A stretch of DNA of 64,000 nucleotides from Dehalococcoidia bacterium (GTDB taxonomy: Bacteria > Chloroflexota > Dehalococcoidia > UBA6926): positions 182,312 through 246,311 of the forward strand of contig CBDBNN010000001.1 in NCBI GenBank assembly GCA_965207895.1, read 5' to 3'. Of the stretch, positions 11,548 through 52,769 are shown in pieces. The translations under genes and the position numbers were made by a program. Below the pieces are notes generated by a model. That model searched no databases and was not told where the DNA came from. It saw only the letters and a list, made by a program, of their open reading frames with translations. Within the stretch, counting starts at the first letter, position 1. Each line of letters opens with the position of its first letter.

Positions 11548-12696
11548 ATGACCACAGATTCTGCGCCGCTCCGTATTGCCGTCATCGGGTCAACAGGCTC
11601 GCTCGGCCAGATTGTTCTTTCCGTCGCTCGCTCACTTGGTGACAACGTCCGCATCGTAGGCCTCGCGGCAGGCTCAAATCTTGAGCGCCTTGCCGAACAG
11701 ATCCAGGAATACCACCCGACCCTGGCCGGTTTTGCACGTGGACGATGGCGCGACGATGTCCCGGAGGGCGTGGAATTCAAGTCCATCAATGACATCGTCA
11801 CCTCACCGGACGTTGACATGGTAATCATCGCGAACGTGGGGCGCGCAAGCCTGGAAGCTGCGTGGGCGGCCATTGACGCGGGTAAGCGCGTCGCTATGGG
11901 CAACATCGACACACTCTATATCGCCGGCGCACTACTCACTCGCCGCGCCAAAGAGACCGGCGCAACCATCTTTCCCCTTGATGACGAACCCATCGGTGTC
12001 TGGCAAACGCTGTGGGGAGAAAGCTCAGAGTCCGTCCGGCAGGTCACCATGACGTCAACGTGGGGCACCGTGCAGGCGCGCCGCCTCCCCCGCCACGGCA
12101 CGCAGATGCCGGCCGGCATGGAGGCGCCCCGGCCCGCTCGCGCAGTGGGACGAAAGCGCTCGATTGACGCCTCAACCCTCATGGTCAAGGCAACGCAGGT
12201 GGCGGTTGTCAACGCCCTTTATGACATCCCTCTGGAAAACATCAATGTCCTCTTCCATCCCCAGGGCCTCGTCCGCGCGCTGACCGAATTCAAGGACGGA
12301 TCGGTCAAGTCTGCCCTCTTCATCCCGGACATGCGCGTCCCCGTCCAGCTCTCTTTGGCGTACCCAAACCGATGGGCGAACGCGGAGATCAACCGTGTGG
12401 ACCTGCTCGCAGAGGGCCGCCTCTCTTTTGAGCCGCTGGAACATGAGCTTTTCCCCTGCTATCAGATCGCTATCGAGGCGGCGCGACAGGGCGACACATA
12501 TCCGGCGGTTGTGGCCGCAGCCAATGACGCCGCAATCGAGCTATTCATTTCTCAGCAGATCGGCCTCACAGATATTCCCAAGATCATTGATCGCGCCGCG
12601 AACGCCCATCGCCCGCAGCCCCTCGATGACCGCGCGAGCATCATTGAAGCAATGGACTGGGCCAAGACGTACGTCGGCGGCCAGGTACAGGACTGA
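11548..12696 (+). CDS. DXR-like protein (1-deoxy-D-xylulose-5-phosphate reductoisomerase family, catalytic motifs divergent)
   Basis: IAVIGSTGSLG N-terminus, the ...GRKRSIDASTLMVKA... segment and FPCYQIAIEAARQG...AANDAAIELFISQQIGLTDI all parallel Dxr. The conserved NKES, DSEH and SGGPF-type motifs are replaced. Confidence 0.65.
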   Translation: MTTDSAPLRIAVIGSTGSLGQIVLSVARSLGDNVRIVGLAAGSNLERLAEQIQEYHPTLAGFARGRWRDDVPEGVEFKSINDIVTSPDVDMVIIANVGRASLEAAWAAIDAGKRVAMGNIDTLYIAGALLTRRAKETGATIFPLDDEPIGVWQTLWGESSESVRQVTMTSTWGTVQARRLPRHGTQMPAGMEAPRPARAVGRKRSIDASTLMVKATQVAVVNALYDIPLENINVLFHPQGLVRALTEFKDGSVKSALFIPDMRVPVQLSLAYPNRWANAEINRVDLLAEGRLSFEPLEHELFPCYQIAIEAARQGDTYPAVVAAANDAAIELFISQQIGLTDIPKIIDRAANAHRPQPLDDRASIIEAMDWAKTYVGGQVQD

Positions 12697-17623: not shown

Positions 17624-17695
17624 GGCAACGTAGCTCAGCGGCAGAGCGGGCGCTTCATAAGCGCTAGGTCACAGGTTCGAATCCTGTCGTTGCCA
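17624..17695 (+). tRNA. tRNA-Met (anticodon CAT; elongator-type or possibly tRNA-Ile2)
   Basis: Cloverleaf by hand: acceptor GGCAACG/CGTTGCC, D-stem GCTC/GAGC, anticodon stem GGCGC/GCGCT with loop TTCATAA, T-arm ACAGG-TTCGAAT-CCTGT, and G1-C72. Confidence 0.8.
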
Positions 17696-17742
17696 CCGGC
17701 CGCATTCATAGAGCGGCGCGCGTGCCGGAGGGTGGCAAACGG

Positions 17743-17819
17743 GGGCGGTTAGCTCAGCTGGTTAGAGCGCTTCCTTCACACGGAAGAGGTCACAGGTTCG
17801 AGTCCTGTATCGCCCACCA
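17743..17819 (+). tRNA. tRNA-Val (anticodon CAC)
   Basis: Acceptor GGGCGGT/ATCGCCC, D-arm GCTC-AGCTGGTTA-GAGC, anticodon stem CTTCC/GGAAG with loop TTCACAC, T-arm ACAGG-TTCGAGT-CCTGT, and an encoded CCA. Confidence 0.85.
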
Positions 17820-19396
17820 TTTTTGACGGTAGACAGAACCGAGCCGTTCAGGGCCATCTCCTCGGCGTTTCTCCCTCCTACCGGTCCATCCTGAGGCATG
17901 GGGATGGTGTACCGGAGGAGGGCGTTGTCGGGCATGACGACGATCTCCTTGACGAAAGACTCGATGAAGGCCCTGCGCTCGGTCAGTTCGCTCTCCTTCA
18001 GGAACTCGCTCATGTCCTGGGCATAGGTGGCGATGGTTTCCACGTCGTCCAAAACCTCCCTGCGCTGGGAGAGGATGGTCCTGGCCTCGGCCGCCGAGTC
18101 CTCAAGGCGCTGTTGACGCTCCCGGTGCTCCCTGATGCGTTCCGAGGCGTCGGCCATGTCGAGGTCGGTGTTCTCCACCAGGTGCCAGACGCGGCCCAGC
18201 TTGCGCTTGACCTCATCAAGCTCGGCCTCGATGGTCTCCAGCCGTTTGCGCTGCTCCGCTGCCACCCCGTCCATCTCCTCGTCCACGATCTTGACCAGTT
18301 CGGTGATGTTGGACTCGGTGAGGACGTTCTCCCGTATCCTCTCCACCACCATCTCCTCGAAGCGTCGTGCGTTGAGCCTGGGGGTCGTGCAAGCGTTCTT
18401 GCCCCGCTTCATGATGGACTGGCAGACGTAGTAGGCGAACTGGCCGCTCTTGGCGTCCTGGCCTGAGAGCGCCCTGTTGCAGGACTTGCACCTGACCAGC
18501 CCGCTGAGCAGGTAGGAGCTTCCCACCCTGCGAGGGTGCGTCCTCTTCGGCGCGCGGGAGCGCATGAGCCGCTTGACGCGGTTGAATTGGGCCTTGGAGA
18601 CGACGGCGGGGAACGCCTTCTCTATGCGTACGGGGTCGGACTTGACCTTCCCTGTAGTGCCCCAGAGCAGCGTGCCCGTGTAGACCTCGTTTCTGAGGAT
18701 GAAGTGGACGCCGTTCTTGGACCAGAGCTTGCCGGTGGCGCTGGCGATGCCCTCTGAGTTGAGTGTGCGGGTGATTTCGGTCATCCCGGTGGCCGACTCG
18801 GCCATGTCGAAGATGCGCTTGACGACGGGAGCAGTGTCAGGGTCGATCTCCAGTGTGGGCCGCTTCTTGGCTCCGTCCTGCACCATGACGCGGTTGTAGC
18901 CGTAGGGCGTCCTGCTGGCGACCCAGAAGCCTCTGGAAGCGGCCTCCCGCATCCCACGGCGAACCTCTTCCGCAAGATTTTCCGAGTAAAACTCATCGAC
19001 GGACTCGATGATGCCCTCAAGGAGCCTGCCTGTGGCGGTGTCGTCGGCCTGCTCGGTGATGGAGACGACGCGGACGCCCTTTCGCCTGAGCATGGACTTG
19101 AAGGCGACGGCGTGCTCGCGCTTTCTGGTGAATCTACTAAATTTCCAGACAAGGATTTCTCTAAACGGGGCCTCGGGCTTGGCGGCCTCGTCGATCATCT
19201 TGCGGAACTCCGGGCGGTCGGCGACGCGCCCGCTCTCGGCCTCGTCCACGTACTCGCGGACGACCACGTAGTCGTTCTTATGGGCGTATTCCCTGAGCGC
19301 CCGCAGCTGTGCGGCCACGGACAGGTCCACGTCCTGTCTGTCGCTGGAGACCCTGGCGTAGAGGGCCACGGGGGTGTAGTCGCTTCTATTGTTCAT
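17762..19396 (-). CDS. Large serine recombinase (resolvase/invertase-type integrase)
   Basis: ALYARVSSDRQD with the catalytic Ser, a recombinase domain, a zinc ribbon (CKSCNRALSG...YYVC) and a coiled-coil tail. The start is taken at the ATG at 19396, which follows AGGAGGAGG. The 3' end overlaps tRNA-Val by about 58 nt. Confidence 0.85.
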   Translation of the reverse strand: MNNRSDYTPVALYARVSSDRQDVDLSVAAQLRALREYAHKNDYVVVREYVDEAESGRVADRPEFRKMIDEAAKPEAPFREILVWKFSRFTRKREHAVAFKSMLRRKGVRVVSITEQADDTATGRLLEGIIESVDEFYSENLAEEVRRGMREAASRGFWVASRTPYGYNRVMVQDGAKKRPTLEIDPDTAPVVKRIFDMAESATGMTEITRTLNSEGIASATGKLWSKNGVHFILRNEVYTGTLLWGTTGKVKSDPVRIEKAFPAVVSKAQFNRVKRLMRSRAPKRTHPRRVGSSYLLSGLVRCKSCNRALSGQDAKSGQFAYYVCQSIMKRGKNACTTPRLNARRFEEMVVERIRENVLTESNITELVKIVDEEMDGVAAEQRKRLETIEAELDEVKRKLGRVWHLVENTDLDMADASERIREHRERQQRLEDSAAEARTILSQRREVLDDVETIATYAQDMSEFLKESELTERRAFIESFVKEIVVMPDNALLRYTIPMPQDGPVGGRNAEEMALNGSVLSTVKNGGRYRTRTCDLFRVKEAL

Positions 19397-19440
19397 CTGT
19401 GAGTCCTCCTCCTGTTTCCTGTCGTTCCCGTGGGCCACTA

Positions 19441-19800
19441 CTAGCCTGCAACACCCGGCATCGTCGTCATCGAACCCGTGTCTTCCCCAAGCGCGCTGAC
19501 CATTTCACGCGGAAGGATGCCCTCGATCTGTTCAGCCTCGGAACGCTCGGCGTGGTAGAGGTCCCAACGGAGTTGCAGGTTCATCCAAAAGCCGGGCGAA
19601 GTGCCGAAGAACCTAGAGAGCCTCAGGGCGGTGCTTGGCGTGACCCCCCGCTTCCCTCGGACGACTTCGTTGACCCTCTGATAGGGCACGTGAATGGCAT
19701 TGGACAGGTCGCGCTGAGTCATTCCGAGGGGCAGCAGGAACTCCGTCAGAAGCATCTCGCCCGGATGCGTAGGCTCTCGATCGGTGGGAATGCGTACCAT
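19441..19800 (-). CDS. higA: HigA-type antitoxin (HTH, XRE-like)
   Basis: MVRIPTDREPTHPGEMLLTEFLLPLGMTQRDLSNAIHVPYQRVNEVVRGKRGVTPSTALRLSRFFGTSPGFWMNLQ is the HigA/VapI signature. Starts 14 nt after the higB stop. Confidence 0.75.
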   Translation of the reverse strand: MVRIPTDREPTHPGEMLLTEFLLPLGMTQRDLSNAIHVPYQRVNEVVRGKRGVTPSTALRLSRFFGTSPGFWMNLQLRWDLYHAERSEAEQIEGILPREMVSALGEDTGSMTTMPGVAG

Positions 19801-19814
19801 GCTCATTCTCCTCT

Positions 19815-20108
19815 TCAGTGATAGTCGGTGATTTCGACGTCGGCGGGTCCGGCAGGTGTCCACGTGAAGCAGATTCGATACCTGTCGTTGACGCGAATAC
19901 TGTGTTGCCCGCTTCGATCTCCGGCCAGCCGTTCCAGGCGGTTGCCGGGAGGTATTCTGAGGTCTCCCAGAACGGAGGCGGAATCGATCTGGTCAAGCTT
20001 TCGATGAGCCACTCCCCATATCGGCATGGGACATGCCCGCAGGGCCGCTTGAGTGGATTGCCCGTTGAAGATGTCCTCTGTACCGCCGTCTCTGAATGAG
20101 ACAATCAT
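19815..20108 (-). CDS. higB: HigB toxin (RelE/ParE superfamily)
   Basis: MIVSFRDGGTEDIFNG...HRKLDQIDSA...NRLERLAGDRSGQHSIRVNDRYRICF is the HigB killer-protein pattern. Confidence 0.75.
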   Translation of the reverse strand: MIVSFRDGGTEDIFNGQSTQAALRACPMPIWGVAHRKLDQIDSASVLGDLRIPPGNRLERLAGDRSGQHSIRVNDRYRICFTWTPAGPADVEITDYH

Positions 20109-21202: not shown

Positions 21203-22864
21203 TCATTTCGCTTCCGTCGGCAGGGACTGGGGCGGCTCCCAGGCGGCGTCCGGGGTGCGCCAGGCGCGTCCCAGCGGTCCCAGGGAGTCGATGGCTTCTT
21301 TGTGGGAGACCCACAGGGGGACCGTGACCCGGCTGGCCTGCATCCGCTCCCGCGCCACGCGCAGGAAGTGGGTGGCGGCGATGTCGTCGTCGAAGACGAT
21401 GAGCACGTCGGGTCTGGCCCCGTGATCGTCCATGGGCCTGTGGGACGAGTAGTAGCGCAGATAGGGGGCGAGGCGCGTCGCCATCGTCGAGGGACGCACG
21501 GCGCGTCGCTCCCACTCCAGGAAGAAGGCCCACGTCTCTTCGCCCCTGCGCAGGACGCCGAAGGCGTCGGGGTAGACGGCGCGCAACCGTTCGTCGTGGC
21601 GGAAGTGGCGGGACGCCCTCCTGGGCGGGTCGAGCTGCGCTATCTCCCATCCCAGGTGCCGGGCCTGGCTCGCAAGCGCGGACAGAAAGACGTGGACGGC
21701 CTCGGTGTGCTCGATGTTCCTGAGAAGCTGGCGGCTCCTGCTGCCGGTGAGGTTGCGCCACTCGAAAGGCCCTTTGGCGTCCTCCGGGGCGACGCTCAAT
21801 CTCCTCCTCGCCGCCGCCACCGAGGTCCTGTCCCTGCGGGCGAGGAGGGCCAGTCCCCGGTCGGTGAGGGCCAGCCGTCCCTCCGCTTCGCGGGGCCTGA
21901 CGACGAGGCTGAAGCCCTCCAGTGGATTGATCAGCTGCGAGGCCCGCTGGGGCGATACTTCCAACAGACCGGCGAGTTCGCCGAGGGCGATCCAGGGCCA
22001 GTCGAATACCAGGTCGAGGGCGCGCTTCTCGGCGGGTCTGAGCGTCACGGGCAGCATGTGGTCGGCCATGTCGGCTACCGTTCCCATGACGGGCAGGTCT
22101 GCGGGGACCGACGCCAGTCCGGGATGCGGCTCCCCCGGAAACGCGCCGCCGGGGTCGGTCCTGTCCAGCGCATAGCGCAGGCTCACGGCTGCGTGGACCT
22201 GGGCCGGAGTCCAGATCGGGGCGTCTACGTCGGCCATGACCGTCTCGCGTTCGACGGCCAGGAGGGACGGAACGTCTGTGGTCGAGAGCATCCTGCGGGC
22301 GTGCCTGAGACGGACGGCGTCCGTCGTGAGGACGAGGACGACTCCGGGCATGGGTTCGTCCTTCAGTCGCCAGAGGCGCTGGGCGAAGACCGAGCGGTCG
22401 GCGGTGGGTCCCTGCCTCACGATGCCGACGGTCCTGCCGTCGGGAAGTTCTATACCCGCGTCCAGCTTGGATGAGCGGTACCAGCGGAAACGCAGGGGGT
22501 AGGCAACGTCGGAAGCGAGAGATGCGACGTGGTATATGGAAGCCAGGGCGTCCATGCGCTCCATCAGGCTTCGCCGCCACTCGGCGGAGACGGGGTGTGT
22601 ACGCACCAGGTCGTCAAGCGACATCCCGTCCCCATCTGCAAGCCTGCGCAGCCCCGCCCCGGTGAGGTGGAACCTCCGGGAGGGTGGAAAGGGATCGACG
22701 GCGTGGAGCACGGAGTCGCAGAGGCCGTCTGCCTGAAGTCTCTCCACGGCCTCGTGGACCGCGCCCTTGGACCGGCCCGTGACCGGGACCATCTCCCGGC
22801 GATTGAGGTAGGGCATGTCGGCCAGGATGCGGATGATCTGAGCTTCCAGTCCCGCGGGTCTCAT
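21203..22864 (-). CDS. Replication-relaxation (Replic_Relax) family protein, tandem two-module form
   Basis: The C-terminal half (HTEAVHVFL...RPDAFGVLRRGEETWAFFLEWERRA) matches the Replic_Relax pattern and the N-terminal half repeats it more weakly. GAGGAGG RBS. The start overlaps the T4CP stop (ATGA). Confidence 0.65.
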   Translation of the reverse strand: MRPAGLEAQIIRILADMPYLNRREMVPVTGRSKGAVHEAVERLQADGLCDSVLHAVDPFPPSRRFHLTGAGLRRLADGDGMSLDDLVRTHPVSAEWRRSLMERMDALASIYHVASLASDVAYPLRFRWYRSSKLDAGIELPDGRTVGIVRQGPTADRSVFAQRLWRLKDEPMPGVVLVLTTDAVRLRHARRMLSTTDVPSLLAVERETVMADVDAPIWTPAQVHAAVSLRYALDRTDPGGAFPGEPHPGLASVPADLPVMGTVADMADHMLPVTLRPAEKRALDLVFDWPWIALGELAGLLEVSPQRASQLINPLEGFSLVVRPREAEGRLALTDRGLALLARRDRTSVAAARRRLSVAPEDAKGPFEWRNLTGSRSRQLLRNIEHTEAVHVFLSALASQARHLGWEIAQLDPPRRASRHFRHDERLRAVYPDAFGVLRRGEETWAFFLEWERRAVRPSTMATRLAPYLRYYSSHRPMDDHGARPDVLIVFDDDIAATHFLRVARERMQASRVTVPLWVSHKEAIDSLGPLGRAWRTPDAAWEPPQSLPTEAK

Positions 22865-25394
22865 TCTCCGACCTCCTCGTCCTCTTCGTCGGTGTGGTTC
22901 TCGGTCGCCTGCTCGTCGTTCTCCTCCCGTTCGGCCTGCTCCAATGCCTCGACGCCTTTGTGAAATTCGTCCACCTTCCCGTGGCCCTCGGCGTCGGCGT
23001 AGTCTCCCTGGCGGGCCGAGACGGTGTAGCCTTGCGTAGCTGCACGTATGCGGTCGGCGACCGATGGGTCTCCTTCCTCAGGCTTGCGCACCTCCATCGA
23101 GAAGGCGGGCATCCGCTCGGTGCCCACGGTGGCGCGGACGTAGCAGTGGTGCACGGGCAGGGACACGACGTCGTCCTCGGACACCCGGTCCTTGCCAAGC
23201 TCCCACACCAGGGTCCTGGCGTCTGAGCCGGCCACCTGGAAGACGGCGAGGCAGCCGACGTTTGCGAGGATGGTGTCCCGCATGGTGCGGGAGAGGTCGT
23301 CCAGCTTGGCCAGGCTCTGTGTCGCCAGGATGAAGGACGCTCCGAACTTCCCAAGCTCCGACAACATCGACTCGTAGTCCACGCCGGGCATGGACTGCAT
23401 CTCGTCCACGACGACCAGCGCGCCGCGACGTTCCCTGAGAGATAGACTTCCCTGCTCCCGTATCACGGCGTCCACCAGGTTCAGGAGCGACGCGCCCACC
23501 AGGGCGGCCACGTCCCTGCCCACCGTTCCCTGGGAGGTGGAGACCAGCAGCACGCCGCCGTCGTGGATGGTCCTTCTCAGGTCGATGGTGGAGCGGCGCT
23601 GTCCCAGGATGGCCCTGGCCCGCTTGGACGATGCGTAGTAGGAGAGACGGGTCTGGACGGGGGCCAGGGCCTCCGCCTTGTACTGGCGGCCCCACTTGCC
23701 GAAGTCCCTGGCCCACCACTCCAGCAGGTAGGGGTCGGAGACCCTCTTGCGCACCTGCTTGGCGAACTCATCGTCCGAGAGCAGCTTCAGGCCGTCGAGG
23801 ATGGTGTACTGCTGTTCGGCCTCCATCTGCTCGTTGGCCTCGTGCAGCGTCTTGACGGTCTGTTCCAGGATCGACTGCATCCTCGGCCCCCACTGGTCCC
23901 AGAGGCCCTTGGCCACCCGCACCACCGAGTCGGCGGTGCGGTCCCGGTCTGCGAATACGCGGGTGTCCAGCAGATTGACGCCGGGGGAACGGCTCGCGTC
24001 CGACAGGTCTATCAGCCTCACCCTGTCGGCTATCTCCTCGGGGACGTGTTCGAGGATGCCCGCCACCAGGTCGGTGTGGGGGTCGATGACGACGATGGCG
24101 TCTTCGTCCCTGCCCGCCGCCTTCTCCCGCATCTTGTGGGCGACCACGTGGTGCATCAGCGTGGACTTGCCCATGCGGGTGCGGGCCACGTAGAGGTGGT
24201 GACGGCGCAGCAGGTCGTCGGGGAATCTGATCTCCCTCTTGGTACCCGCCGTGGTGTCGCCCACCAGCGCGCCGCCCCTGACTCCCTTCGCCGACGGGCT
24301 GAGCGCCCGTGCGCCGGACCGCTCCACCAACGGCGTCTCGTTCCCCGCTCCCGGCGGGTGCCAGAGGCAGGCGGCCTCCCGGACTCCCAACACGCTGCGC
24401 CTGCCGAACAGGCCGGGGCCTGTGGGATGCAGGTTCGTCCGGGGTCGGGAGCGACGGGCCTTACCTTGCTCACCTTGAACCTCGCCCCTGCCGGGTTGTC
24501 GAAGTGCCGGTAGGCGGCGGCAACCCTCCTCATGAGCTCCTCGGCCCGCTCGCGCCCCGTGTCGTCCGGCATGATCGCCGTGACCCGTATCTCGGCGTCG
24601 AAGGCGATGCGGGAGACCTTCTCCCTGATGAGCAGGGGGTCTTCGACCCGGTTCCTCGCCTTCTTGAAGCGGTGCCATGCCCAGCCACCGATGCCAAGCC
24701 CCAGGGCCGTTCCGATGCCAAGCAGCACCGTCTTCCACGTCTCGCCGTCCTGCACCCACAGGTAGCCCTGGAGGGCTGCGAGAGCGCCGACGCCGAGGAC
24801 GGCCATGGTCACCCCGTCCATCTGGAGGGGCTTGGTTTGGTAGGTGTAGGACGGCTCCCGCTGCTCCTGGCCGGGCCGCTTGTGGGCCTTCTCCATGTGG
24901 TGCTGGGACCAGTCGGGGCCGAGGGAGTTCAGCTTGAGTTGAGCCACCACGCGCTCCCCCTCGTAGAGGGACGACAGCGCGCCCATGAGGGCAATCAGAG
25001 GGTCGGAGCCGGGGTCGAGCAGGTCGTCGTCGCGGAAGGTGCGCAGGGGGACATACTCGGGGCCGTCGGCCCTGAGCGTCATCGACCATGCCTGCTCCCC
25101 CTCCCTTAGCCACAGCGGGTCTTCCCAGGGATGCACCTCCTGTATGCGGGCCTGGGGATAGTGGGCGGCGATCTGGCCGCGTACCACCCGGTCGTCGATG
25201 CAGCGGGCCATCAGCGTCACGCCGTCCATGTCCCCGGCAAGCTCCAGGGAGAAGGGCTCAGGCACCGCGATTGACTGGAGGAGGTTCTCCACGCCCAGCA
25301 ACGTCCGCTCGCCCGTCCTCGGCGGCGTCACCGCAAGCAGCGCCGGGGTCTTGTCGTCGCTTCCAAATAGTTTGCGTATCGGGTTCTGTTTCAT
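22861..25394 (-). CDS. Type IV secretion coupling protein (VirD4/TraG/TraD-like), apparently frameshifted near 24.3-24.4 kb
   Basis: The N-terminal part (25394 down to about 24400: two TM helices and an all-alpha region) and the C-terminal part (about 24300 down to 22861: Walker A ARTRMGKST, VVVDEMQS, ATQSLAKLDDL TraG-D_C-like) lie in different frames. GGGAGGAG RBS before 25394. Confidence 0.6.
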
Positions 25395-25409: not shown

Positions 25410-27665
25410 CTACGTATGGGTCTCTTCTGCGTTCTCGCCTCTCTGTCGGTGTCCGCCCGGTCTCCACTCGATGACCTCCGTTTCCTCCGGGGTGGCCTCG
25501 ATGCGGACGGGGAAGCGGTGTCCCTTCGCCAGCAACAGTCCGTCCCCACGGGGACACGACAGCAGCCAGCGCTGGAGGTCTTCGGGCAGGTCGAAGGCGT
25601 CGCCCACGGTGCCTATGGCAGCCGCGTCCTGCTGCAAGAGCAGCTTGAAGGCGGCGTTCTGGAGAAGCGCCCTCCCCGAATGGCCGGTGATGGTCCTCGA
25701 CGAGTCCTCGGACAAAAGGTCCTGGACGTCCTGGGTGATGAACTGAAGCCCCAGCCGGTGTTTCCTGGCGCGTTTCGCCATAGACACCATGAAGGCCGCG
25801 CCCTCGGGGTGCTGCATGATGCTCCACACCTCGTCCACCACCAGCAGCCTCGGCTTGGGGTTCTGGGCGGCCGCCGCCCACACCGTCTCGGTGCAGACCA
25901 TCGCCGCAGCGGGCCTAAGCTCCGGTTCGAGGAGACGCAGGTCGAAGACGGTGACGAGTGCTTCGCTCCCCAGCAGGTCGTCCCCCTCGTCGGAGAGGAG
26001 GTTGCGGAGGCTGCCGGTGGCGAAGGGCCTCAGCAGGTGGGCTATGTCCGGGGCCTGCCCTTCCAGGTATGTGTAGAAATCACGGAAGCCTGTGCGTTCG
26101 CGGTGCTGGGCGTAGTAGCCCGCCAGGGCGTGGTCCAGGGAGGCCCTGCGCTCCGCTCCGAGACTCTCACCCACCATGACTTCAATGAGCCTTCTCAGGC
26201 TCCCGATCCTCTGGAGCAGCTCCTCGTCGTCTCCCCGGTCGATGACGAAAGGGTTCATGCCCTGGCCTTCCACTCCGGGAGACAGCACCCTGCCTCCGGC
26301 GGCGCGAGCCATGTCCGCGTACTCCCCCTCCGGGTCGATGACGTAGGCGGTGACGCCGCGCGTCAATCCCCTGAGCACTCCGAGCTTGGTTGCGAAAGAC
26401 TTGCCGCTGCCCGACCGTGCGAGGACTGCCGTGTTGGCGTTGAGATGGGTGCCGTCCCAGGGGTCGTAGACCACGGGGGAGCAGGCCCGCATGTCAACGC
26501 CGTAGAGGGTGCCGCTGCGGGTATCCAGGTCCGGCGGCGAGAAGGGGAAGAGCCGGGCCAGAGAAGACGTGTCCAGGGTCCTCCACTCGGCCACGGCGTT
26601 CAGGGCCAGGGGCAGCGTCGAGAGCAGCCCCTCGCGTTGGCGGAAGGCCAGGTTGTCCAGCTTGCCGAGAGTGGCGGCAAAATGGGCCTTGGCCCTCTGG
26701 GTCATCTCCTTCAGCGACGCCTCGTCCTTCGCGTGGAGGGTCACGGATAAAGAGGAGTGAAAGAGACGCTCACGTCCGCGCTGCACCTCGTCGCGGAGCC
26801 GGGTCACGTCTTCCAGGGCGATCTCCGCCTCGGGCGACATGGTGCGGCCACGCTTGAACGAGAGACTCTGCGCCGATTCGAACCTGACCTTCTGCCACTC
26901 CAATGTCCTGGCCGCCTGCTCGGCGGGGATCGGCCCCAGATGAATGGACAGGTCCATGGGCGCTCCCGCCGCCATCAGCCCTTGCAGGAACCCTGGGGCC
27001 AGCGATCTGGGCCACTTGCCCAGGTGAAGGGAGCGGATGAGATGCGTGCCAATGCGCATGTCGCGCCGGTTGACCTGCACCTCGATCTCTTCGTTCTCGT
27101 CCACGTCAACAGGCGAGCCACCCAGGGCTGCGGCTACAAGGAACATTCGAAGCTGCCTGCCCCTGAGGGGGTGGACGGAGAGTCCGGCCCTCGCCAGCAG
27201 GCCCCGCAGCTCGTCGATACGGGAGTGCTCGCAGACGGCGTAGAAGCGCCGGTCCAGGATGCCGTCCCGGGTCTCTAGGTCGGTGAGCAGGCGCCTGAGC
27301 GACTCCGATGCCGCTCTCGTCTGCGGCGGCAGGTCGTCGGGTTGGGCCTCTTGCAGCTTCTCACGCAGACCGCCAAGGCGCGGCGGGTGCTGGCGCATGA
27401 GCAGCTGCACCGGGAAGTCGAGGGCGTTGAGCGCCCCGGCGAAGGCCCCCAGCTTCGGCTCGTCGATCTCAAGCCCCATCACCTCGCACACTCCCATCTT
27501 CACCCCGTCCAGCCGCACGGGGCCGTCCTCCTCCAGGTGCGACAGCATGAAGAAGAAGGGCAGACCGGGCGGCGGCTTCGGAACCGGAGCGGTCCCTTCG
27601 GGCGGCGCGGCGTCCGCCGTCCGCTCCGTGTTTCGTCTCTTGATTCGTTCGAGCAGCTCTTTCAA
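25410..27665 (-). CDS. VirB4/TraE/TrsE-type conjugative transfer ATPase
   Basis: Walker A LARSGSGKSFATK and Walker B LLVVDEVWSIM. Start is placed at the TTG at 27665, 9 nt after AAGGAG. The track ORF extension is low-complexity and overlaps the upstream gene. Confidence 0.8.
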   Translation of the reverse strand: MKELLERIKRRNTERTADAAPPEGTAPVPKPPPGLPFFFMLSHLEEDGPVRLDGVKMGVCEVMGLEIDEPKLGAFAGALNALDFPVQLLMRQHPPRLGGLREKLQEAQPDDLPPQTRAASESLRRLLTDLETRDGILDRRFYAVCEHSRIDELRGLLARAGLSVHPLRGRQLRMFLVAAALGGSPVDVDENEEIEVQVNRRDMRIGTHLIRSLHLGKWPRSLAPGFLQGLMAAGAPMDLSIHLGPIPAEQAARTLEWQKVRFESAQSLSFKRGRTMSPEAEIALEDVTRLRDEVQRGRERLFHSSLSVTLHAKDEASLKEMTQRAKAHFAATLGKLDNLAFRQREGLLSTLPLALNAVAEWRTLDTSSLARLFPFSPPDLDTRSGTLYGVDMRACSPVVYDPWDGTHLNANTAVLARSGSGKSFATKLGVLRGLTRGVTAYVIDPEGEYADMARAAGGRVLSPGVEGQGMNPFVIDRGDDEELLQRIGSLRRLIEVMVGESLGAERRASLDHALAGYYAQHRERTGFRDFYTYLEGQAPDIAHLLRPFATGSLRNLLSDEGDDLLGSEALVTVFDLRLLEPELRPAAAMVCTETVWAAAAQNPKPRLLVVDEVWSIMQHPEGAAFMVSMAKRARKHRLGLQFITQDVQDLLSEDSSRTITGHSGRALLQNAAFKLLLQQDAAAIGTVGDAFDLPEDLQRWLLSCPRGDGLLLAKGHRFPVRIEATPEETEVIEWRPGGHRQRGENAEETHT

Positions 27666-27684
27666 CTCGGTTGACTCCTTCGTG

Positions 27685-28002
27685 CTAGGGGGTGGGGAAC
27701 GGGACGATGCCGCTGCGCAGCAGTGCGGCGACGGCCTTGGCCAGCAGCACCAGCACAAGGCCCACGACTGCCATGACCACTGCGGTCTTGGCCCTGCCGC
27801 CGCCACGCTCCTCCGCGCCCTCGGCCATCAGGACGAAGCCCGCCCAGACGACGGCGAAGACGGCGAGTCCGGCGGCGGCGTAGGCCATCGCGGTCAGCAC
27901 CGCGTCGAAGGCGGCCAGCATCGCCCGCTCCTCGGCCGGGGCCGCGCCGACGGTCGCCAACGCAGCCCCGGCAAGGAGGATTGCCGTCCATGCCCGTCTC
28001 AC
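27685..28002 (-). CDS. Small secreted two-helix membrane protein (VirB2/TrbC pilin-like, tentative)
   Basis: GTG start overlapping the upstream stop (GTGA). A signal-like N-terminus is followed by two hydrophobic helices. Location between the PrgI-like gene and VirB4. Confidence 0.4.
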   Translation of the reverse strand: MRRAWTAILLAGAALATVGAAPAEERAMLAAFDAVLTAMAYAAAGLAVFAVVWAGFVLMAEGAEERGGGRAKTAVVMAVVGLVLVLLAKAVAALLRSGIVPFPTP

Positions 28003-29723: not shown

Positions 29724-30017
29724 CTATTTATCGGGAACTTCTGTGGGTGCCGGGGTCGGATCGGGCACGGTGACATCCACCGGGGAACCGACGACGGCGT
29801 TCATCACCAGCTCCACGACCCCGTAGGCCACCATCGCAAGGACGATGCCCGCCAGGGCGGTCATCATGGCGCTCTTGCCGCGCTCCATCTGGTGGGGTGC
29901 TCCGCTGGCCGTCAGGTACAGGTAGGCCCCGTAGATGAAGAAGCCCACGCCCACGACTCCCACGATTCCCAGCAGGATGCCCACCAGGTTCGATATGGTC
30001 TGTGTCAGGTTTTCCAT
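29724..30017 (-). CDS. Small two-TM membrane protein (pilin-like, T4SS-associated)
   Basis: 97 aa with two hydrophobic helices and a Pro/Thr-rich tail. Located within the T4SS operon. Confidence 0.4.
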   Translation of the reverse strand: MENLTQTISNLVGILLGIVGVVGVGFFIYGAYLYLTASGAPHQMERGKSAMMTALAGIVLAMVAYGVVELVMNAVVGSPVDVTVPDPTPAPTEVPDK

Positions 30018-30175: not shown

Positions 30176-31156
30176 TTACTCGTTCGCGCTCCTGGGGGCT
30201 TCGCCGCCCATGTCTCCGCCGCCCGACGGGGTCGCCATCGACGCCGCCGAGCTGAGGCCGCCAGCCGCAGCCGACAGCCCCGCGCTGGCCGCAACCGCGC
30301 CAACCGCAACGCCTCCCGGTCCTCCCGCCGCTCCCCCGGCCATCAGCCCGATGGTCTTTGCAGAGCGCACGAAGGACGCGGGCAGGTTCATGCCGAAGTA
30401 GAGCATCGAAAGCCAGCTATCGAAGGTGCCGGCGTTGCCCAGCAGCGACGGCACCCGGGTCGCCATGTAGACGAAGGCCAGGGACATCAGCAGCTTCCAC
30501 ACCAGGTCCTGCACCGGCTCGAAGGCGGCTATCTGCGCGACCTCGTTGAGGAACCCGAACCCCAACGCCAACGCGATGAGTTGGATCGCCTGCTGGAACA
30601 CCGTCGTCATGAATAGCCTGAGCCAGTGGCGGCCCCAGCCCGCCGTGTGGGGCAGAATCCACAGCCCCAACGCGATGGGAGCCAGGGCGAGAAGAATGTC
30701 GATCAACGCAAGGCGCAGGATCATCTGCACGATGACGTAGAGGACGAAGAAGCCGTAGACGAGATAGAGCACCGCCAGCAGCAGGGCCATGCCCACGCTT
30801 CCGGCCTGAACTGCGGTGAGCAGGGTCTTGAGGGTGGACCTGAGCATGTCCCCGGCGGTGACGTTCAGAGATACCGCGACGAAGCCGGACACGGCGTCGG
30901 CAACGTCGATGACCAGGGCGCACCACCACAGGGAGGACGCGGCGGCCACAAGCCCCAGCACCAGACGGGGGACCATCTCCCGCCAACCTGTCTGAGACCT
31001 TCCGAGGTGCTCGGACACGATGAGGGACAGCCCCATCCAGCCCAGGATCACGATTAGGGCGCCCGACGTGATGGCCCAGACGACCATCCACGCCTGCTGC
31101 ACCAGGTGGTGGGCGTAGGTGAGGTCGGGGGGAGTCCCGGTGAGGATGTCGCTCAT
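30176..31156 (-). CDS. Polytopic membrane protein (VirB6/TrbL/TcpH-like, tentative)
   Basis: 326 aa with at least six TM helices and a Gly/Ala/Ser-rich C-terminal tail. The T4SS context is typical of VirB6 analogues. Confidence 0.5.
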   Translation of the reverse strand: MSDILTGTPPDLTYAHHLVQQAWMVVWAITSGALIVILGWMGLSLIVSEHLGRSQTGWREMVPRLVLGLVAAASSLWWCALVIDVADAVSGFVAVSLNVTAGDMLRSTLKTLLTAVQAGSVGMALLLAVLYLVYGFFVLYVIVQMILRLALIDILLALAPIALGLWILPHTAGWGRHWLRLFMTTVFQQAIQLIALALGFGFLNEVAQIAAFEPVQDLVWKLLMSLAFVYMATRVPSLLGNAGTFDSWLSMLYFGMNLPASFVRSAKTIGLMAGGAAGGPGGVAVGAVAASAGLSAAAGGLSSAASMATPSGGGDMGGEAPRSANE

Positions 31157-35400: not shown

Positions 35401-36558
35401 ATGACGACGGCAACCACGACGAGGACCAATAGGACCAAGGACACGGAACCCACGACGGATGCGGCGGCGCCCGCCGAGCGCAGGGGCAGGCCCGAGAGCG
35501 AGCTGAGGGCCGCCGCCAGGAAGCGCGGCCTCACCCTGAAGGAGCTGGCGGCCCTGATGGGCGTCAGCGCAAGCCACCTCTCCCAGGTCGGCACGGGCAA
35601 GAAGCCCTGGACCCCCAACCTGCGGGAGAAGGCGATGGCCGTGCTGGGAGAGGTCCCTGGGCAGGGGATCGTCTACCGACAGACCCGCGAGGTAGATGCA
35701 GAAAGTACCTTCATCCGGGAGCGCGCACGCGAGATAGGAATCACCATGCTGGAACTGTCCGACCGGTCGGGGGTCTCCTACGGCTACCTGACGCAGGTGG
35801 CAAGGGGACGCCGGAACATGGGACCCAAGGTGCAGGCCAGCATCGAGTCGGTCCTGAACGCTCCGGCCAGGGTCGCCCCCGCACAGTGCGCCAACCGCCA
35901 GGGTGACGTGATCGAGAGTGAGGCCAGCAGCTTCATCAGGGAGACCGCCCGCGCCCTCGGACTAACCATGAGGGAGCTGGCCGAGAAGGTCGGCGTGTCC
36001 GCCGGGTACCTCAGCCAGGTGTCCAGAGGGCACCGTAGCATGGGGGTGAAGCTCCAGGCCAGGGTCGAGGCCATGCTTGGGGGACGGGCGAAGGTCGCGT
36101 CCGCCCAGTGTCCCAACCTCGACCAACAGGCCGTCTGGGACCGGATGAAGGAGCTCGACGTCAGCCAGAACGAGGTGGCGCGTAGGGCGGGCATCAGCTC
36201 CGGCCACCTCTCCCAGATCATGAACGGCAGAAGCATCCCGTCAGCCGTGGTCCTCAGGAAGCTGCACGGAGCGCTGTTCCGGCGGAGGCAGGGGGAAGAG
36301 CGGGTGATGCCCGTCGCCATGAAGGTGTTGGGCTGGAAGAAGGGAGAGCGCAGCGGGATGGTGGTGCACGGCGCTCGCGGACGCGACGGCACGGCCAGGG
36401 GCGGCGCGGTCCGCGTCGGCGGGCGCGTGCCCTGGGGCGCGGAGGTGGAGTACGCCTTCCGCACCGGATACGACGGCGCAGGGAAGGTGTCCGTGGACCA
36501 CGTGGTCGCCCCGGGCTACTCCGCACTGCTGACACAGCCCCAGGCCGGAGCCGCGTAA
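35401..36558 (+). CDS. Transcriptional regulator with four tandem XRE-type HTH domains
   Basis: Four repeats of GLTxKELAxxxGVSxxxLSQVxxGxR (LTLKELAALMGVSASHLSQV; ITMLELSDRSGVSYGYLTQV; LTMRELAEKVGVSAGYLSQV; VSQNEVARRAGISSGHLSQI). GAAAGGAG RBS. Confidence 0.75.
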   Translation: MTTATTTRTNRTKDTEPTTDAAAPAERRGRPESELRAAARKRGLTLKELAALMGVSASHLSQVGTGKKPWTPNLREKAMAVLGEVPGQGIVYRQTREVDAESTFIRERAREIGITMLELSDRSGVSYGYLTQVARGRRNMGPKVQASIESVLNAPARVAPAQCANRQGDVIESEASSFIRETARALGLTMRELAEKVGVSAGYLSQVSRGHRSMGVKLQARVEAMLGGRAKVASAQCPNLDQQAVWDRMKELDVSQNEVARRAGISSGHLSQIMNGRSIPSAVVLRKLHGALFRRRQGEERVMPVAMKVLGWKKGERSGMVVHGARGRDGTARGGAVRVGGRVPWGAEVEYAFRTGYDGAGKVSVDHVVAPGYSALLTQPQAGAA

Positions 36559-37039: not shown

Positions 37040-37563
37040 CGGATTCTTGCCCACAGCCGGAGCATCCCGCCGACGCTAACCGCCGCCAGCGTGGCCACAA
37101 TCAGGCCCGTCTTCACCACGGTGAACACGGCGGCCAGCCAGGTCAGCGGAGAAGGCTCACCGTCGTAGCTCAGGGCCAGCGCAGCGATGGTCGTATTCTC
37201 CAGCACATCCGCAAGGGCGAGGGCCAGCGGCAGCAGATACAGCGGCGCTCCGCCTCGAAAGAGCCGGAACAGCAGGACGGCGAACAGCAGGCCGTACGAG
37301 GCCGGAAAGAGCATGTCGACGGTGAGCGCGGTGGTCGCATAGACGACCCGTGCGCTGGCGTCGAGCCGGTCCAGGGCGTCGAAGAGGGCCGCCGCCTCTG
37401 CGGGTGTGTACCAGCCCCGACCGTCGAGCAGGTCCAGTCCTCCCAGCCGCGCCTGCCGCCAGGCGAGTCCCGCCACACAACCGACGGCGCCAACAAAGGC
37501 TGCGACCGTCATTCGCCAGGTTGCGAGTCGCTCCACCATCCTGCCCATCTGCAATGCCTTCAC
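37027..37563 (-). CDS. Hypothetical polytopic membrane protein
   Basis: 178 aa with four or five hydrophobic helices. Confidence 0.5.
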   Translation of the reverse strand: MKALQMGRMVERLATWRMTVAAFVGAVGCVAGLAWRQARLGGLDLLDGRGWYTPAEAAALFDALDRLDASARVVYATTALTVDMLFPASYGLLFAVLLFRLFRGGAPLYLLPLALALADVLENTTIAALALSYDGEPSPLTWLAAVFTVVKTGLIVATLAAVSVGGMLRLWARIRQSR

Positions 37564-37685
37564 CTCCGGTAGACCGGGCGCCTCCTCAGGACCTGCCCAT
37601 CACCCGCCCCGTGGGGCAGAGGAAGGGGGCCTGCGACATTGCCGCAGGCCCCCTTGCATCCTCTTGCCGGTCCGGCCGGGCCGGA

Positions 37686-46445: not shown

Positions 46446-46468
46446 GAGAGAGAACCCCCACGAAATGC

Positions 46469-46478
46469 GGGGGGGGGG
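46469..46478. repeat. Homopolymeric G10 (C10 on the coding strand) 24-33 nt upstream of the adhesin start codon
   Basis: Sequence ...atgcGGGGGGGGGGtgaagc. On the minus strand this reads CCCCCCCCCC-gcatttcgt-GGGGG-ttctctctc-ATG. Confidence 0.6.
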
Positions 46479-46748
46479 TGAAGCTCCGCAGCGCATCAGT
46501 CATGTCGTCGAACCTCCTGTGTCGCCCGACTTATGCCGCGACGCCGTGCGGGCGCTGGATCAGTAGTATTTCTAGCTCATGTCAATATGTGTCGCAAACG
46601 ACCAGCAGATATCATCCGCCAATCTGGGGTTCGTTGTCAATGGGGTCCGGGTTGGATTGGGGACGGAAAGGGAGGGCGGAGCGCAGCAACATACCGTGTG
46701 GGGACTGGCGGACAAGGGCGACTTGGCGAGACCCCTCGGAGGCAGTCG

Positions 46749-47437: not shown

Positions 47438-47693
47438 GCCTCCTCCCTTCAATGAGCGTTCCCTCGTTCCTAATTCTACCACTCTGCGGGAGATCCGGAC
47501 AGCCAGAAGGGGCGGTGCCACAGGGGAAGACAGACCAACCAGCTATGGCCTATACTGCGAGCCTACAGACTTCCCAGTCGCATCTCGAAAACGGTTCTGC
47601 CTACCGTCAAAATAGGCCCACCAGAATCGGCAAGTTCTTGATCCAATTGTGCGTCACCGTTTGAACCACCTGTGTAACCACTAGGAGGGTGAC

Positions 47694-52597: not shown

Positions 52598-52769
52598 CCT
52601 GACTTCCCCCACACCCCAGACCTGATCACTTACGGAACAGGTAACCGTTAAATCAGCTAAATGTTGATGGTCGATTTTACAGGAACGTTAAAGCAATGTA
52701 AAATCAAGTGGTGGCTTCACGCCGTTGGCCTCGTCGGATGTCTCACCTGAATGGAAGGGATGGTCGTAT

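Follow-up and report, generated by a model that had tools for sequence, protein, structure and literature searches.

A 29,804-bp conjugative element of the ICE type very probably lies in the Dehalococcoidia chromosome analysed here, integrated at the last bases of a tRNA-Val(CAC) gene through the action of a large serine recombinase (LSR) that it encodes. The attachment site of the element falls within the recombinase gene, and integration therefore swaps the last 17 residues of the enzyme. As this 17-residue tail and the stop codon are encoded at the right end of the element, the gene would be complete only in the excised circle. All coordinates refer to the window, the whole stretch of 64,000 nucleotides that was analysed.

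Using ARAGORN, we found a tRNA-Met(CAT) gene (17624-17697) and an intact tRNA-Val(CAC) gene (17743-17819), both on the plus strand, confirming the pair named in a previous, sequence-only reading of this DNA. The tRNA-Met is a host gene, unused as a target at this locus. Its encoded 3' end reads ..GCCACC, followed by G, the terminal A not being encoded. The T-arm and the acceptor 3' strand of tRNA-Val form the left (B) arm of attL. The body of this tRNA is host DNA, to which the element would contribute at most the final few bases. A tRNA-Val with an identical 3' end carries an insertion in L008 and L084 and none in L022, L045 and L046. In the two occupied cases, both from related genomes, tRNA-Val(CAC) again lies beside tRNA-Met and is filled by an element with a recombinase of the same family (L008) or a different one (L084), in line with the proposal of a repeatedly used integration site.

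The recombinase gene marks the left terminus of the element and its reading frame is intact. The ORF as called spans 17762-19438 on the minus strand (558 aa); we took the gene as 17762-19396 (544 aa), because close homologues begin at the ATG at 19396 (MNNRSDY...). Pfam recognized a Resolvase (E = 4e-34), a Recombinase (5e-21) and a Zn_ribbon_recom domain (4e-12). The Resolvase domain covers residues 24-170 of the 558-aa ORF, and ALYARVSSDRQ is visible in the translation; the nucleophilic serine, placed by eye after gamma-delta resolvase, is presumably that of the YxRVS motif. The protein matched a PHROG integrase (E = 1e-110). Matches in the PDB were the SPbeta integrase, over residues 58-399, the TP901-1 integrase and resolvase-family catalytic domains. 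With a predicted N-terminal Resolvase and a C-terminal Recombinase plus zinc ribbon, the enzyme has the domain set of serine integrases.

The stop codon of the gene ends at 17762 and the tRNA at 17819, giving an overlap of exactly 58 nt with the tRNA-Val antisense, in agreement with the ~58 nt reported before. The overlap arises because the attachment site lies within the recombinase gene, whose frame runs across the crossover. Bases 17813-19396 are common to all members of the recombinase family, and 17762-17812 hold the last 16 codons and the stop, read from the tRNA-Val antisense.

The element extends from ~17816 to ~47619 and is GC-rich, the G + C fraction being 0.66-0.72 from about 20 to about 46 kb of the window, up from ~0.59. 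At its ends we found an 8-bp direct repeat, GCCCACCA, which is the only sequence common to both junctions. The left copy, the common core, lies at 17812-17819 (tRNA positions 69-76), and the right copy at 47616-47623, where related right ends lose similarity. Next to the repeats lie two inverted arms, the P' arm ACCATTTTTGACGGTAGACAGAACCG (17816-17841) and its partner, the P arm CGGTTCTGCCTACCGTCAAAATAGGC (47592-47617). The stretches 17821-17841 (minus) and 47592-47612 (plus) are identical at 20/21 positions, with 0.00 such pairs expected by chance; the chance expectation for the P' arm against the inverted repeat at 47592-47612 was 0.00 with 0 and with 1 mismatch. The P' arm falls within the LSR codons for ...SVLSTVKNGG. 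Across 66 distinct genes, its synonymous sites were 94-100% conserved, versus 36-80% just upstream, the pattern of a DNA site embedded in coding sequence.

Comparison with related elements placed both boundaries. On the left, elements at unrelated sites (L001/L006, L005, L007, L010 and L012) matched the window from exactly 17812-17814, at 95-97% identity over at least 9.7 kb. Homologous right ends were found in L016, L046, L048, L052, L054, L058, L062, L075 and L083. In the two best of these (L016 and L054) the BLAST match to the window ends at 47623-47624; the seven others retain the arm and the core and then diverge into unrelated flanks. The B' flank, GAATCGGCAAGTTCTTGATCC... (47624-47693), would be the host DNA that follows tRNA-Val in the empty site. 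Beyond it lies a SMODS gene (Pfam; 47694-48617, plus strand), outside the element. The predicted empty site joins tRNA-Val to DNA lying 72 nt upstream of SMODS (joint ...GTCCTGTATCGCCCACCAGAATCGGCAAGTTCTTG...; sequence after the unoccupied tRNA-Val, GAATCGGCAAGTTC...). The sequence-only reading had expected tRNA-Val to abut a retropepsin/SMODS region in an empty site. This needs correction, as the retropepsin-like gene and its partner ORF both fall within the element.

The predicted joints are CCGTCAAAATAGGCCCACCATTTTTGACGG for attP and TATCGCCCACCAGAATCGGCAA for attB, and the junction in the excised circle would read ...CTACCGTCAAAATAGGCCCACCATTTTTGACGGTAGACAG.... The reconstructed attP has two 25-nt inverted arms (20/21 over the distal 21 nt) around CC, and shares only 6-8 bp with the tRNA sites. 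With attL and attR defined in the window, such a predicted attP (inverted arms, a central dinucleotide and minimal identity with attB) has the form used by serine integrases. Comparison of junctions narrowed the crossover to CCACCA, and the symmetry of the reconstructed attP makes CC at 17814-17815 (C71-C72) the most likely crossover dinucleotide. The GGTTC motif is offset by 6 bp between the attP arms and the tRNA arm, compared with 5 bp in the Listeria-integrase model. A comparison of the downstream (B') arms across sites revealed no common motif.

We propose that the circle would carry an attP of the form CGGTTCTGCCTACCGTCAAAATAGGC-CC-ACCATTTTTGACGGTAGACAGAACCG, with ~25-nt inverted arms around a short core, and that attB would consist of the T-arm and acceptor end of the tRNA (...GGTTCGAGTCCTGTATCGC-CC-ACCA) plus any downstream DNA. 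Recombinase dimers on attP and attB would synapse, cut at the 2-bp crossover, most likely C71-C72 within CCACCA, and exchange strands. The products would be attL, with the tRNA and the P' arm, and attR, with the P arm and the host flank. Both attP and attB contain (G)CCCACCA, and hence the tRNA sequence would be unchanged. The P' arm lies in the last conserved LSR codons, the gene crossing attP. In the circle, the last 17 codons and the stop would come from the other element end (47563-47616); upon integration, the frame would enter the tRNA antisense and stop 58 nt in.

The detached 3' end of the LSR gene was recognized at the right end of the element (47563-47616, minus strand). In the excised circle, ...VKNGG would be extended in frame by PILTVGRTVFEMRLGSL and a stop. 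Nine distinct right ends gave the tail GGPx[LW]T[VI][GD]RT[VI]FE[ML][WR][LM]G, and in 8/9 the stop was reached one to three codons past it; L058 reads on. Among the nine, differences by codon position were 83/16/111, with position 2 depleted, and past the stop the identity dropped from 0.72 to 0.26. At the level of these alignments, the detached tail shows coding-type conservation. The depletion of position 2 fits a codon-aligned frame on the opposite strand equally well. We prefer the recombinase frame, because a common stop ends the conservation in 8/9 right ends and because L016, the one right end checked, has no start codon for the opposite frame. The excised-form tail also occurs in natural proteins (P0110 and P0102), and natural P'-core-P junctions encode it (L083/P0110). 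In the integrated form, the protein ends in 16 residues, RYRTRTCDLFRVKEAL, that come from translating the T-arm and the anticodon arm of the tRNA in antisense. The C-termini of the 120 closest homologues part ways directly after ...VKNGG.

Two other kinds of C-terminus were considered as forms of this enzyme and rejected. Homologues of 606-643 aa are not a longer isoform, their tails being the antisense of a second, convergent recombinase gene. Tails of the type GGPxxTELRTFRWEVxI are not regarded as the attP form of this element, since comparison with L084 suggests that they stem from the arm of another recombinase family (motif TTTGCGAAC), at putative junctions of unlike elements.

We found 413 relatives in GTDB genomes. 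All 80 loci kept were from Dehalococcoidia MAGs, at least nine of them from one genome. After ...TGGTGG, the junctions continue as the antisense of a tRNA for Ala, Ile, Lys, Met or Val. Ile(GAT) and Ala(TGC) are occupied by recombinases 97-98% identical to the LSR, and Val(CAC), Ala and Ile by copies 92-94% identical; more distant ones also use Lys and Met. Taken over the range of 97-99% identity, copies lie at Val, Ile and Ala tRNAs. As read from their junctions, several tRNA species serve as targets of the recombinase family. All occupied tRNAs (39/39) had CC-A-CCA ends, and the unoccupied Arg, Gln, Glu, Leu and Thr tRNAs ended otherwise. Many family elements adjoin other recombinase elements in arrays. 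The arms of the other two recombinase families were searched for in the window without success, and this locus thus shows no trace of an array.

The overlap between the ORF and the tRNA resembles that of classical tRNA islands, in which, as with tyrosine integrases, the crossover lies inside the tRNA (T-loop or anticodon loop). The 58 nt would then be the element's copy, and a displaced tRNA 3' fragment would lie at its far end. A 20-bp ssrA repeat and T-loop insertion have been inferred for a related Dehalococcoides system (PMC3146451). Several results make this arrangement very unlikely here. No second copy of the tRNA-Val 3' 25-mer was present in the window at up to 3 mismatches, and a general direct-repeat scan of the window recovered only repeats of the cargo gene. 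The view that the overlap is an element-borne tRNA 3' half is contradicted by the 8 bp that are all the junctions share. The recombinases 97-98% identical to the LSR, two of them on 96%-identical elements, abut tRNAs for Ile (L003 and L004) and Ala (L002), and homology stops at CCACCA. In L054, position 70 of the tRNA at attL is still U, its own base, and at attR this position has the C of the element. A crossover at the CCA end, leaving the tRNA intact, accounts for the locus, and the earlier suggestion of an LSR-bearing mobile element at the tRNA-Val 3' end is supported.

Resolvase-family proteins can also be invertases, and the LSR had a secondary match to PHROG 125, 'DNA invertase'. A resolvase/invertase or transposon gene could in principle sit beside the tRNA by coincidence, the island having been inserted otherwise. 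We regard this as extremely unlikely. The domains are of the integrase type (Recombinase plus zinc ribbon, with the PHROG integrase match), the last conserved codons of the gene are themselves one of the terminal inverted arms, and about 39 tRNAs show this arrangement of gene and junction. In addition, the element ORFs scanned contained no other integrase; the Pfam scan of roughly 18 of them gave no tyrosine integrase (Phage_integrase-family) domain. The recombinase is best seen as the integrase of the element on which it lies.

With respect to conjugation, the element encoded several recognizable genes, all on the minus strand. A type IV coupling protein (VirD4/TrwB-like; 22861-25113) had the Pfam domains TrwB_AAD_bind and TraG-D_C, and a VirB4/TraC-like conjugation ATPase (25410-27806) had P-loop_TraG, AAA_10 and TraC_F_IV. 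A TrbL/VirB6-like channel protein (Pfam TrbL) was found at 30176-31156. The small pilin-like protein at 29724-30017 has two hydrophobic stretches that look by eye like membrane helices, and its counterpart in L001 gave a weak T4SS_pilin match. The candidate relaxase is a Replication-relaxation/MarR protein (Pfam Replic_Relax; 21203-22864), with a marginal score of 26.2 bits against a cut-off of 25.3 and a weak PHROG match to 'replication initiation by nicking' (E = 8e-4); its gene is conserved in the related elements L001 and L002. With an integrase, attL and attR, a VirB4-type ATPase and a coupling protein, the element has several of the components that define an ICE, and we classed it as such because it carries this type IV secretion set.

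Near the recombinase, a HigA-like antitoxin (HTH_3; within 19441-19863) and a HigB-like toxin (19815-20108) were annotated by Pfam, both on the minus strand; the pair (19441-20108) is likely an addiction module of the element. On the plus strand, a protein with four HTH_3 domains (35401-36558; Pfam, four stretches, E = 2e-27), whose gene contains a four-fold internal DNA repeat, is a probable element-carried regulator. The remaining annotated genes are on the minus strand. The cargo includes an ORF for a 2,936-aa repetitive secreted or surface protein (37686-46496), which is built with 327-nt tandem repeats and has a weak Calx-beta match. To the left of the P arm lie a retropepsin-like aspartic protease gene (46749-47123; weak Pfam Asp_protease_2 and gag-asp_proteas matches) and its upstream partner ORF (47120-47521).

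As temperate phages are the best-known carriers of LSRs, and some ORFs of the element lack annotation, a prophage was weighed against a conjugative element. The VirB4, coupling protein, VirB6 and relaxase-like genes speak against it. So does the lack of capsid, portal, terminase and tail matches in PHROGs and Pfam among the ORFs scanned, including nine otherwise uncharacterised ORFs in which the PHROG scan gave no phage-structural match. The predicted attP pattern also had no match in IMG/VR. We give the prophage reading a very small probability and retain the ICE assignment.

We searched for the empty site and the circular form. A search of JGI metagenomes for the exact 22-mer predicted for attB returned 0 hits, and a degenerate pattern of the circular attP junction gave 0 hits in IMG/VR viral contigs. 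No unoccupied homologue of the locus was found in relatives, the two syntenic relatives both being occupied. Searching with the gamma-carbonic-anhydrase-like protein of the host recovered one syntenic contig, L084, with its tRNA-Val filled by another recombinase element. Exact-protein look-ups of the SMODS and MaoC-like proteins of the window and of P0121 returned no record, and the SMODS homologue checked (P0124/L087) adjoins a patatin gene, with no tRNA there. The syntenic copy in L008 has ~82% nucleotide identity over the element and ~81% over the host. At least three other genomes have copies at different sites, with 95-97% identity over no less than 9.7 kb; in L003 and L004 the match covers 11.6 kb. 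The copies at other sites are far closer than the syntenic one, indicating recent movement.

The failure to find an excised form or an empty site, and the divergence of the L008 element at the rate of its host, as in old vertical inheritance, would also suit a fixed relic: an old integration, now immobile, in which the replacement of the tail was inactivating and the overlap has no present function. We consider this unlikely, since the ORF is full length with all its domains, the arms are intact (20/21) and the near-identical copies elsewhere surpass that of the syntenic relative. The concern that the recombinase might be a degenerate remnant did not hold either, the full-length protein being 97-99% identical to copies at other tRNAs elsewhere. 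The intact ends and these near-identical copies would point indirectly to present-day excision and transfer.

The GGTTC of the tRNA T-loop may be recognised by the zinc-ribbon domain, the downstream arm may be demanded only weakly, and the tail swap may have a function. Taken together, it is possible, with the balance against it, that targets are chosen by the T-loop GGTTC at attB spacing plus a CC-A-CCA end, with little downstream demand, and that the native 17-residue tail, restored in the circle or at tandem junctions, switches activity, directionality or stability through a deliberate split of the gene. If so, any such tRNA, or the tRNA-proximal junction of an integrated element, would be reusable, and the reuse of such junctions would explain the arrays.

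Judging by its published description, the closest precedent would be DsiB of the Dehalococcoides ssrA islands, whose gene overlaps the 3' ~70 bp of ssrA and whose C-termini vary (McMurdie et al. 2011, PMC3146451). These islands have a 20-bp direct repeat, an inferred T-loop insertion and tandem arrays, and were judged mobilizable only; their authors speculated that the recombinase gene may be complete only on the circular form (PMC3146451). The D. mccartyi enzyme comes from the same bacterial class and resembles the LSR in several ways. Both are recombinases of ~540 aa, encoded in reverse orientation at the left boundary of their element, and in both the 3' end of the gene runs into that of the RNA gene used as target. 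In both systems the C-termini vary and elements occur in tandem arrays. [quoted passage not shown] The partners of DsiB (the small recombinase DsiA and RecF-like, ParB-like, Mom-like and large primase-like proteins) are not beside the gene here, where we found HigA/HigB, an HTH protein, the relaxase-like protein and type IV secretion genes. The ssrA islands were judged mobilizable only, whereas the element here carries a type IV secretion set. The split integrase gene makes the 2011 speculation on DsiB testable, with both protein forms defined to the residue.

Phage-type LSRs (phiC31, Bxb1, A118/LI, TP901-1 and SPbeta SprA) share the domain architecture, the ~25-bp inverted attP arms around a central dinucleotide and the very low identity between attP and attB. 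In a model of these enzymes the distal arm motif is nearer the centre in attB than in attP (PMC3783163), as found here. They use one specific site, usually in a protein-coding gene, whereas the family described here uses several tRNA 3' ends. Further, one attP arm here lies within the integrase coding sequence, interrupting the gene, and the carrier is an ICE and not a phage.

Serine recombinases at tRNA genes are called rare in the portion of Ghinet et al. 2011 (PMC3218068) used here, which names phiRSM1 (tRNA-Ser) and eight Mycobacterium AICEs (tRNA-Leu) and makes no mention of an integrase gene spanning attP for them. As described there, each uses one tRNA species, compared with several here; phiRSM1 is a filamentous phage and the AICEs transfer through FtsK-like systems, in contrast to the type IV secretion ICE of the window. 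The phiRSM1 recombinase we take to be a small resolvase-like enzyme.

Genes in which attP lies inside the reading frame, so that integration alters the product, are known from SSV-type archaeal integrases and from mycobacteriophage integration-dependent immunity, both with tyrosine integrases. The SSV integrase gene is split near its middle, and the mycobacteriophage repressor with its degradation tag is truncated. In all these cases the 3' part of an element gene is separated on integration, giving two protein forms. The difference is that the enzyme here is a serine integrase, of which only the last 17 residues are exchanged.

Tyrosine-integrase islands in tRNA and tmRNA genes (the Williams sublocation classes) carry tens of bp of the tRNA and have a long direct repeat. 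They too land on a conserved tRNA 3' end, leave the tRNA intact and return to the same site, but with another recombinase family and chemistry, and only 6-8 bp are shared here. For the insertion of large DNA, serine integrases are the principal tools, each normally bound to one specific site. A family that lands harmlessly on the conserved end of several tRNA species would widen what serine integrases can recognise, and could provide ready landing sites in bacteria with CCA encoded in their tRNA genes. Mobile elements of Dehalococcoidia were previously known mainly from the Dehalococcoides ssrA islands. With more than 400 copies in species-representative genomes and 95-97% identical elements across genomes, the recombinase family is apparently a major route of gene flow in this class.

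The window held two tRNA genes, tRNA-Met(CAT) (17624-17697, +) and tRNA-Val(CAC) (17743-17819, +), both called by ARAGORN. The ORF at 17762-19438 (-) carried Resolvase, Recombinase and Zn_ribbon_recom domains (Pfam), the trio of a large serine recombinase; its start was placed at the ATG at 19396, from the start of close homologues. The recombinase ORF overlapped tRNA-Val by 58 nt, with the end of its stop codon at 17762, and its C-terminal 16 residues, RYRTRTCDLFRVKEAL, were the antisense translation of tRNA-Val. These results bear out the coordinates and the description of the overlap made in a sequence-only reading. Its interpretation was right in substance, with corrections on the cause of the overlap, the position of the retropepsin genes and the state of the recombinase, which is intact and not the degenerate remnant that the reading had allowed for.

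No second copy of the tRNA-Val 3' end (25 nt) was found elsewhere in the window. The 21 nt adjoining the tRNA (17821-17841; CGGTTCTGTCTACCGTCAAAA on the minus strand) recurred in inverted orientation at 47592-47612 with a single mismatch, a match for which the chance expectation is zero. An 8-bp direct repeat, GCCCACCA, was present at both junctions: on the left in ...GTATC GCCCACCA TTTTTGACGGTAGACAGAACCG (repeat at 17812-17819), on the right in CGGTTCTGCCTACCGTCAAAATAG GCCCACCA GAATCGGCAAG... (repeat at 47616-47623). The inverted arms and the repeat thus give the element a length of 29,804 bp. Copies at quite different sites aligned with the window from exactly 17812-17814 and stayed 95-97% identical for at least 9.7 kb, and the right ends of nine other loci shared ...CATCTCGAAnAnGGTTCTGnCTACCGTCnAnnTAGGCCCACCA and then diverged. 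By these ends, the SMODS gene (47694-48617) lies outside the element and the retropepsin pair inside, not in the outer flank of the tRNA-Val site, where it had first been placed.

The GC content rose from ~0.59-0.60 to 0.66-0.72 between ~20 and 46 kb of the window, then fell again. The element genes, mainly on the minus strand, included a HigB/HigA pair, a Replic_Relax/MarR protein, a type IV coupling protein, a VirB4-like ATPase, a pilin-like protein, a TrbL/VirB6 protein, a four-HTH regulator (35401-36558, +), a 2,936-aa repeat protein (37686-46496, -) and the retropepsin-like gene pair. Nine otherwise uncharacterised element ORFs gave no phage-structural matches (PHROGs), and no tyrosine integrase was found among the element ORFs scanned (Pfam). 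By its predicted functions, this gene set is that of an integrative conjugative element. The regulator has four consecutive Cro/C1-type HTH domains in one protein, unusual for an element regulator, with a four-fold DNA repeat at 35522-36219. The 2,936-aa ORF had at least six 327-nt (109-aa) tandem repeat copies of 84-94% identity, an N-terminal hydrophobic stretch, signal-like by eye, and a weak Calx-beta match; the product resembles a giant surface protein, carried as cargo by the conjugative element. The other strand has a 2,753-aa ORF here (37350-45611) that seems to be an artefact of the high GC.

Joining the element ends gave the circle site attP as CGGTTCTGCCTACCGTCAAAATAGGC-CC-ACCATTTTTGACGGTAGACAGAACCG, with a 25-nt arm on each side; its centre of symmetry, CC, is equivalent to tRNA positions 71-72. 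The empty chromosomal site attB was reconstructed as ...GGTTCGAGTCCTGTATCGC-CC-ACCA-GAATCGGCAAGTTC.... Junctions at other tRNAs narrowed the crossover to CCACCA; at L054, a homologous locus, a tRNA-Ala kept its own U70 at attL, and the element's C was found at attR. From the symmetry, we infer CC as the central crossover dinucleotide. Each attP arm has a GGTTC motif that starts 25 nt from the centre; the GGTTC of the tRNA arm, which is the T-loop, starts at 19 nt. In the Listeria-integrase model the distal motif lies nearer the centre in attB, by a 5-bp shift (PMC3783163); the shift here has the same direction and amounts to 6 bp, a fit that is suggestive only.

The 120 closest recombinase homologues (76-99% identical) shared ...LNGSVLSTVKNGG and diverged directly after it. 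Their tails, classed from the DNA contexts of the homologues, read as the antisense of one of several tRNAs, as the antisense of a second, convergent recombinase gene (the 606-643-aa forms) or as another element's arm, so the junction falls within the reading frame. Third positions of the arm codons were 94-100% conserved, versus 36-80% just upstream (66 distinct genes), pointing to constraint at the DNA level. At the far end of the window's element, 47563-47616 (-) encodes PILTVGRTVFEMRLGSL followed by a stop, apparently a detached recombinase tail. Nine distinct right ends encoded GGPx[LW]T[VI][GD]RT[VI]FE[ML][WR][LM]G in the recombinase frame, with a stop 1-3 codons past the tail in eight of them (L058 reads on), and their pairwise identity dropped from 0.72 to 0.26 directly past the stop. 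Differences past the arm fell on codon positions 1/2/3 as 83/16/111. A codon-aligned frame on the opposite strand could also underlie this right-end constraint, and the position-2 depletion alone does not separate the two frames; the coincidence of the stops speaks for the recombinase frame, as does the lack of an opposite-frame start codon in L016, the one right end checked. Natural proteins with the tail occur where P' arm meets P arm in the chromosome (P0110 from locus L083, and P0102). Read most simply, these results mean that the recombinase gene extends across attP: it would be complete in the circle, and its last 17 residues would be exchanged on integration. The ORF would enter tRNA-Val because the gene spans the attachment site; a carried tRNA copy as the source of the overlap was rejected.

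A scan of one genome per species gave 413 relatives, of which 80 loci were kept, all from Dehalococcoidia MAGs and at least nine from a single genome. About 39 junctions lay at tRNAs, namely Ala(TGC, GGC), Ile(GAT), Lys(TTT, CTT), Met(CAT) and Val(CAC, TAC, GAC). Recombinases 97-98% identical to the window's were found at Ile(GAT) and Ala(TGC), and copies 92-94% identical at Val(CAC), Ala and Ile, indicating relaxed tRNA choice across close recombinases. Every occupied tRNA had a CC-A-CCA end, which the Arg, Gln, Glu, Leu and Thr tRNAs left unoccupied at these loci lacked; CC-A-CCA tRNAs were sometimes empty, including tRNA-Val(CAC) in L022, L045 and L046. No common motif was found among the downstream arms compared. 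Other complete elements with these ends measured ~5.5 to 11 kb.

The integration hotspot proposed from the sequence was supported by two related genomes, both occupied at the syntenic tRNA-Met/tRNA-Val(CAC) locus. L008, whose genome is ~81% identical to the host flank over 8.9 kb, a match that places the window too in Dehalococcoidia, had the same recombinase family (94% aa) and an element of ~82% DNA identity to the window's; in L084 the recombinase was another one, of 551 aa (66% nt), and had an arm of its own. Copies in other genomes, at other tRNAs, were far closer to the window's element (95-97% identical) than was the relative's syntenic copy, which speaks for an independent and recent acquisition and for repeated use of the tRNA-Val site. 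Neither an empty copy of this locus nor a circular junction was found. In L084 (3188-10367), a metagenome contig, the tRNA-Val(CAC) and recombinase are followed by ORFs whose translations resemble, by eye, an SOS-response peptidase, a DnaE2-like polymerase and an ImuB-like protein, together a putative mutagenesis cassette.

About half of the junctions adjoined the end of another recombinase element and not a tRNA: ~17 were tail-to-tail with a second recombinase family, ~8 lay against the arm of a third, and that of L083 against an arm of the same family. Such arrays would result if the tRNA half-site were used repeatedly by newcomers, a mechanism that we infer from the junctions. In L001/L006 (11400-13200), two different large serine recombinase genes converge, their 3' ends overlapping over the shared core GTCAAAAATGGTGGGCCGGACTTGAC and reading each other's antisense into 606-643-aa ORFs. 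The same overlap occurred at ~16 further loci (including L005, L012, L024, L029, L034, L040, L043, L048, L052, L057, L065, L075, L077, L079 and L080), and suggests a hybrid junction at which two unlike elements abut. L066 (7972-11586) and L031 (7963-11657) had a tandem pair of family recombinase genes in the same orientation, ~80% identical to the window's, which could be paired as in SCCmec or reflect a minimal element nested at the junction. In L019, L021, L028 and L041 the recombinase ended in ...STVKSGP, with the core in opposite orientation (GTCAAGTCAGGCCCACC; junction near 11569-11590), which would put the recombinase gene, relative to the core, at the opposite element end; the junctions of L019 and L021 were followed by a tRNA-like T-arm fragment without an ARAGORN call. 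In L007 (10663-10720), a 98%-identical recombinase met a short repeated motif (CACG.GAGAATCGGCGCTTCACACGAGAATCG), neither tRNA nor recombinase arm. This motif has GAATCGGC in common with the window's downstream flank, perhaps by chance, perhaps because a repeated host element serves as pseudo-site.

The closest precedent is DsiB of the Dehalococcoides mccartyi ssrA islands, a ~540-aa protein whose gene lies in reverse orientation at the island's left edge and overlaps the 3' ~70 bp of ssrA, with variable C-termini and islands in tandem arrays; the authors of that study suggested that the gene is perhaps complete only on the circle (PMC3146451). Unlike those islands, the element uses several kinds of ordinary tRNA, has only 6-8 bp in common with its target, carries conjugation genes, and has no DsiA/RecF/ParB/Mom module. 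A passage of Ghinet et al. terms serine-recombinase integration into tRNA genes rare, and there gives as examples only phiRSM1 (tRNA-Ser) and eight Mycobacterium elements (tRNA-Leu) (PMC3218068). The term tRNA has no occurrences in the large serine recombinase survey of Durrant et al.

To the right of the element, the SMODS/CD-NTase-like nucleotidyltransferase gene (47694-48617, +) lies in a stretch of low GC (0.53-0.55) and starts 72 nt past the element end. In L087 (8962-10906) a 73%-identical homologue comes immediately after a patatin gene, an arrangement known from CBASS-type defence operons; the window's gene has no patatin gene, and the element end lies in that position. In the lower-GC region beyond, a 998-aa ORF (49616-52612, -) had adenylation, carrier (LGGHSL) and terminal reductase motifs, by eye those of a putative NRPS-like carboxylate reductase. 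In a 399-aa ORF (55074-56273, -), an N-terminal hydrophobic stretch, by eye a membrane anchor, precedes ~270 residues in which Gly-X-Y collagen-like repeats continue without interruption. Repeats of 9 nt and 18 nt (GTCCGGCGGGAGTGGCGG...) run through 61719-61862.
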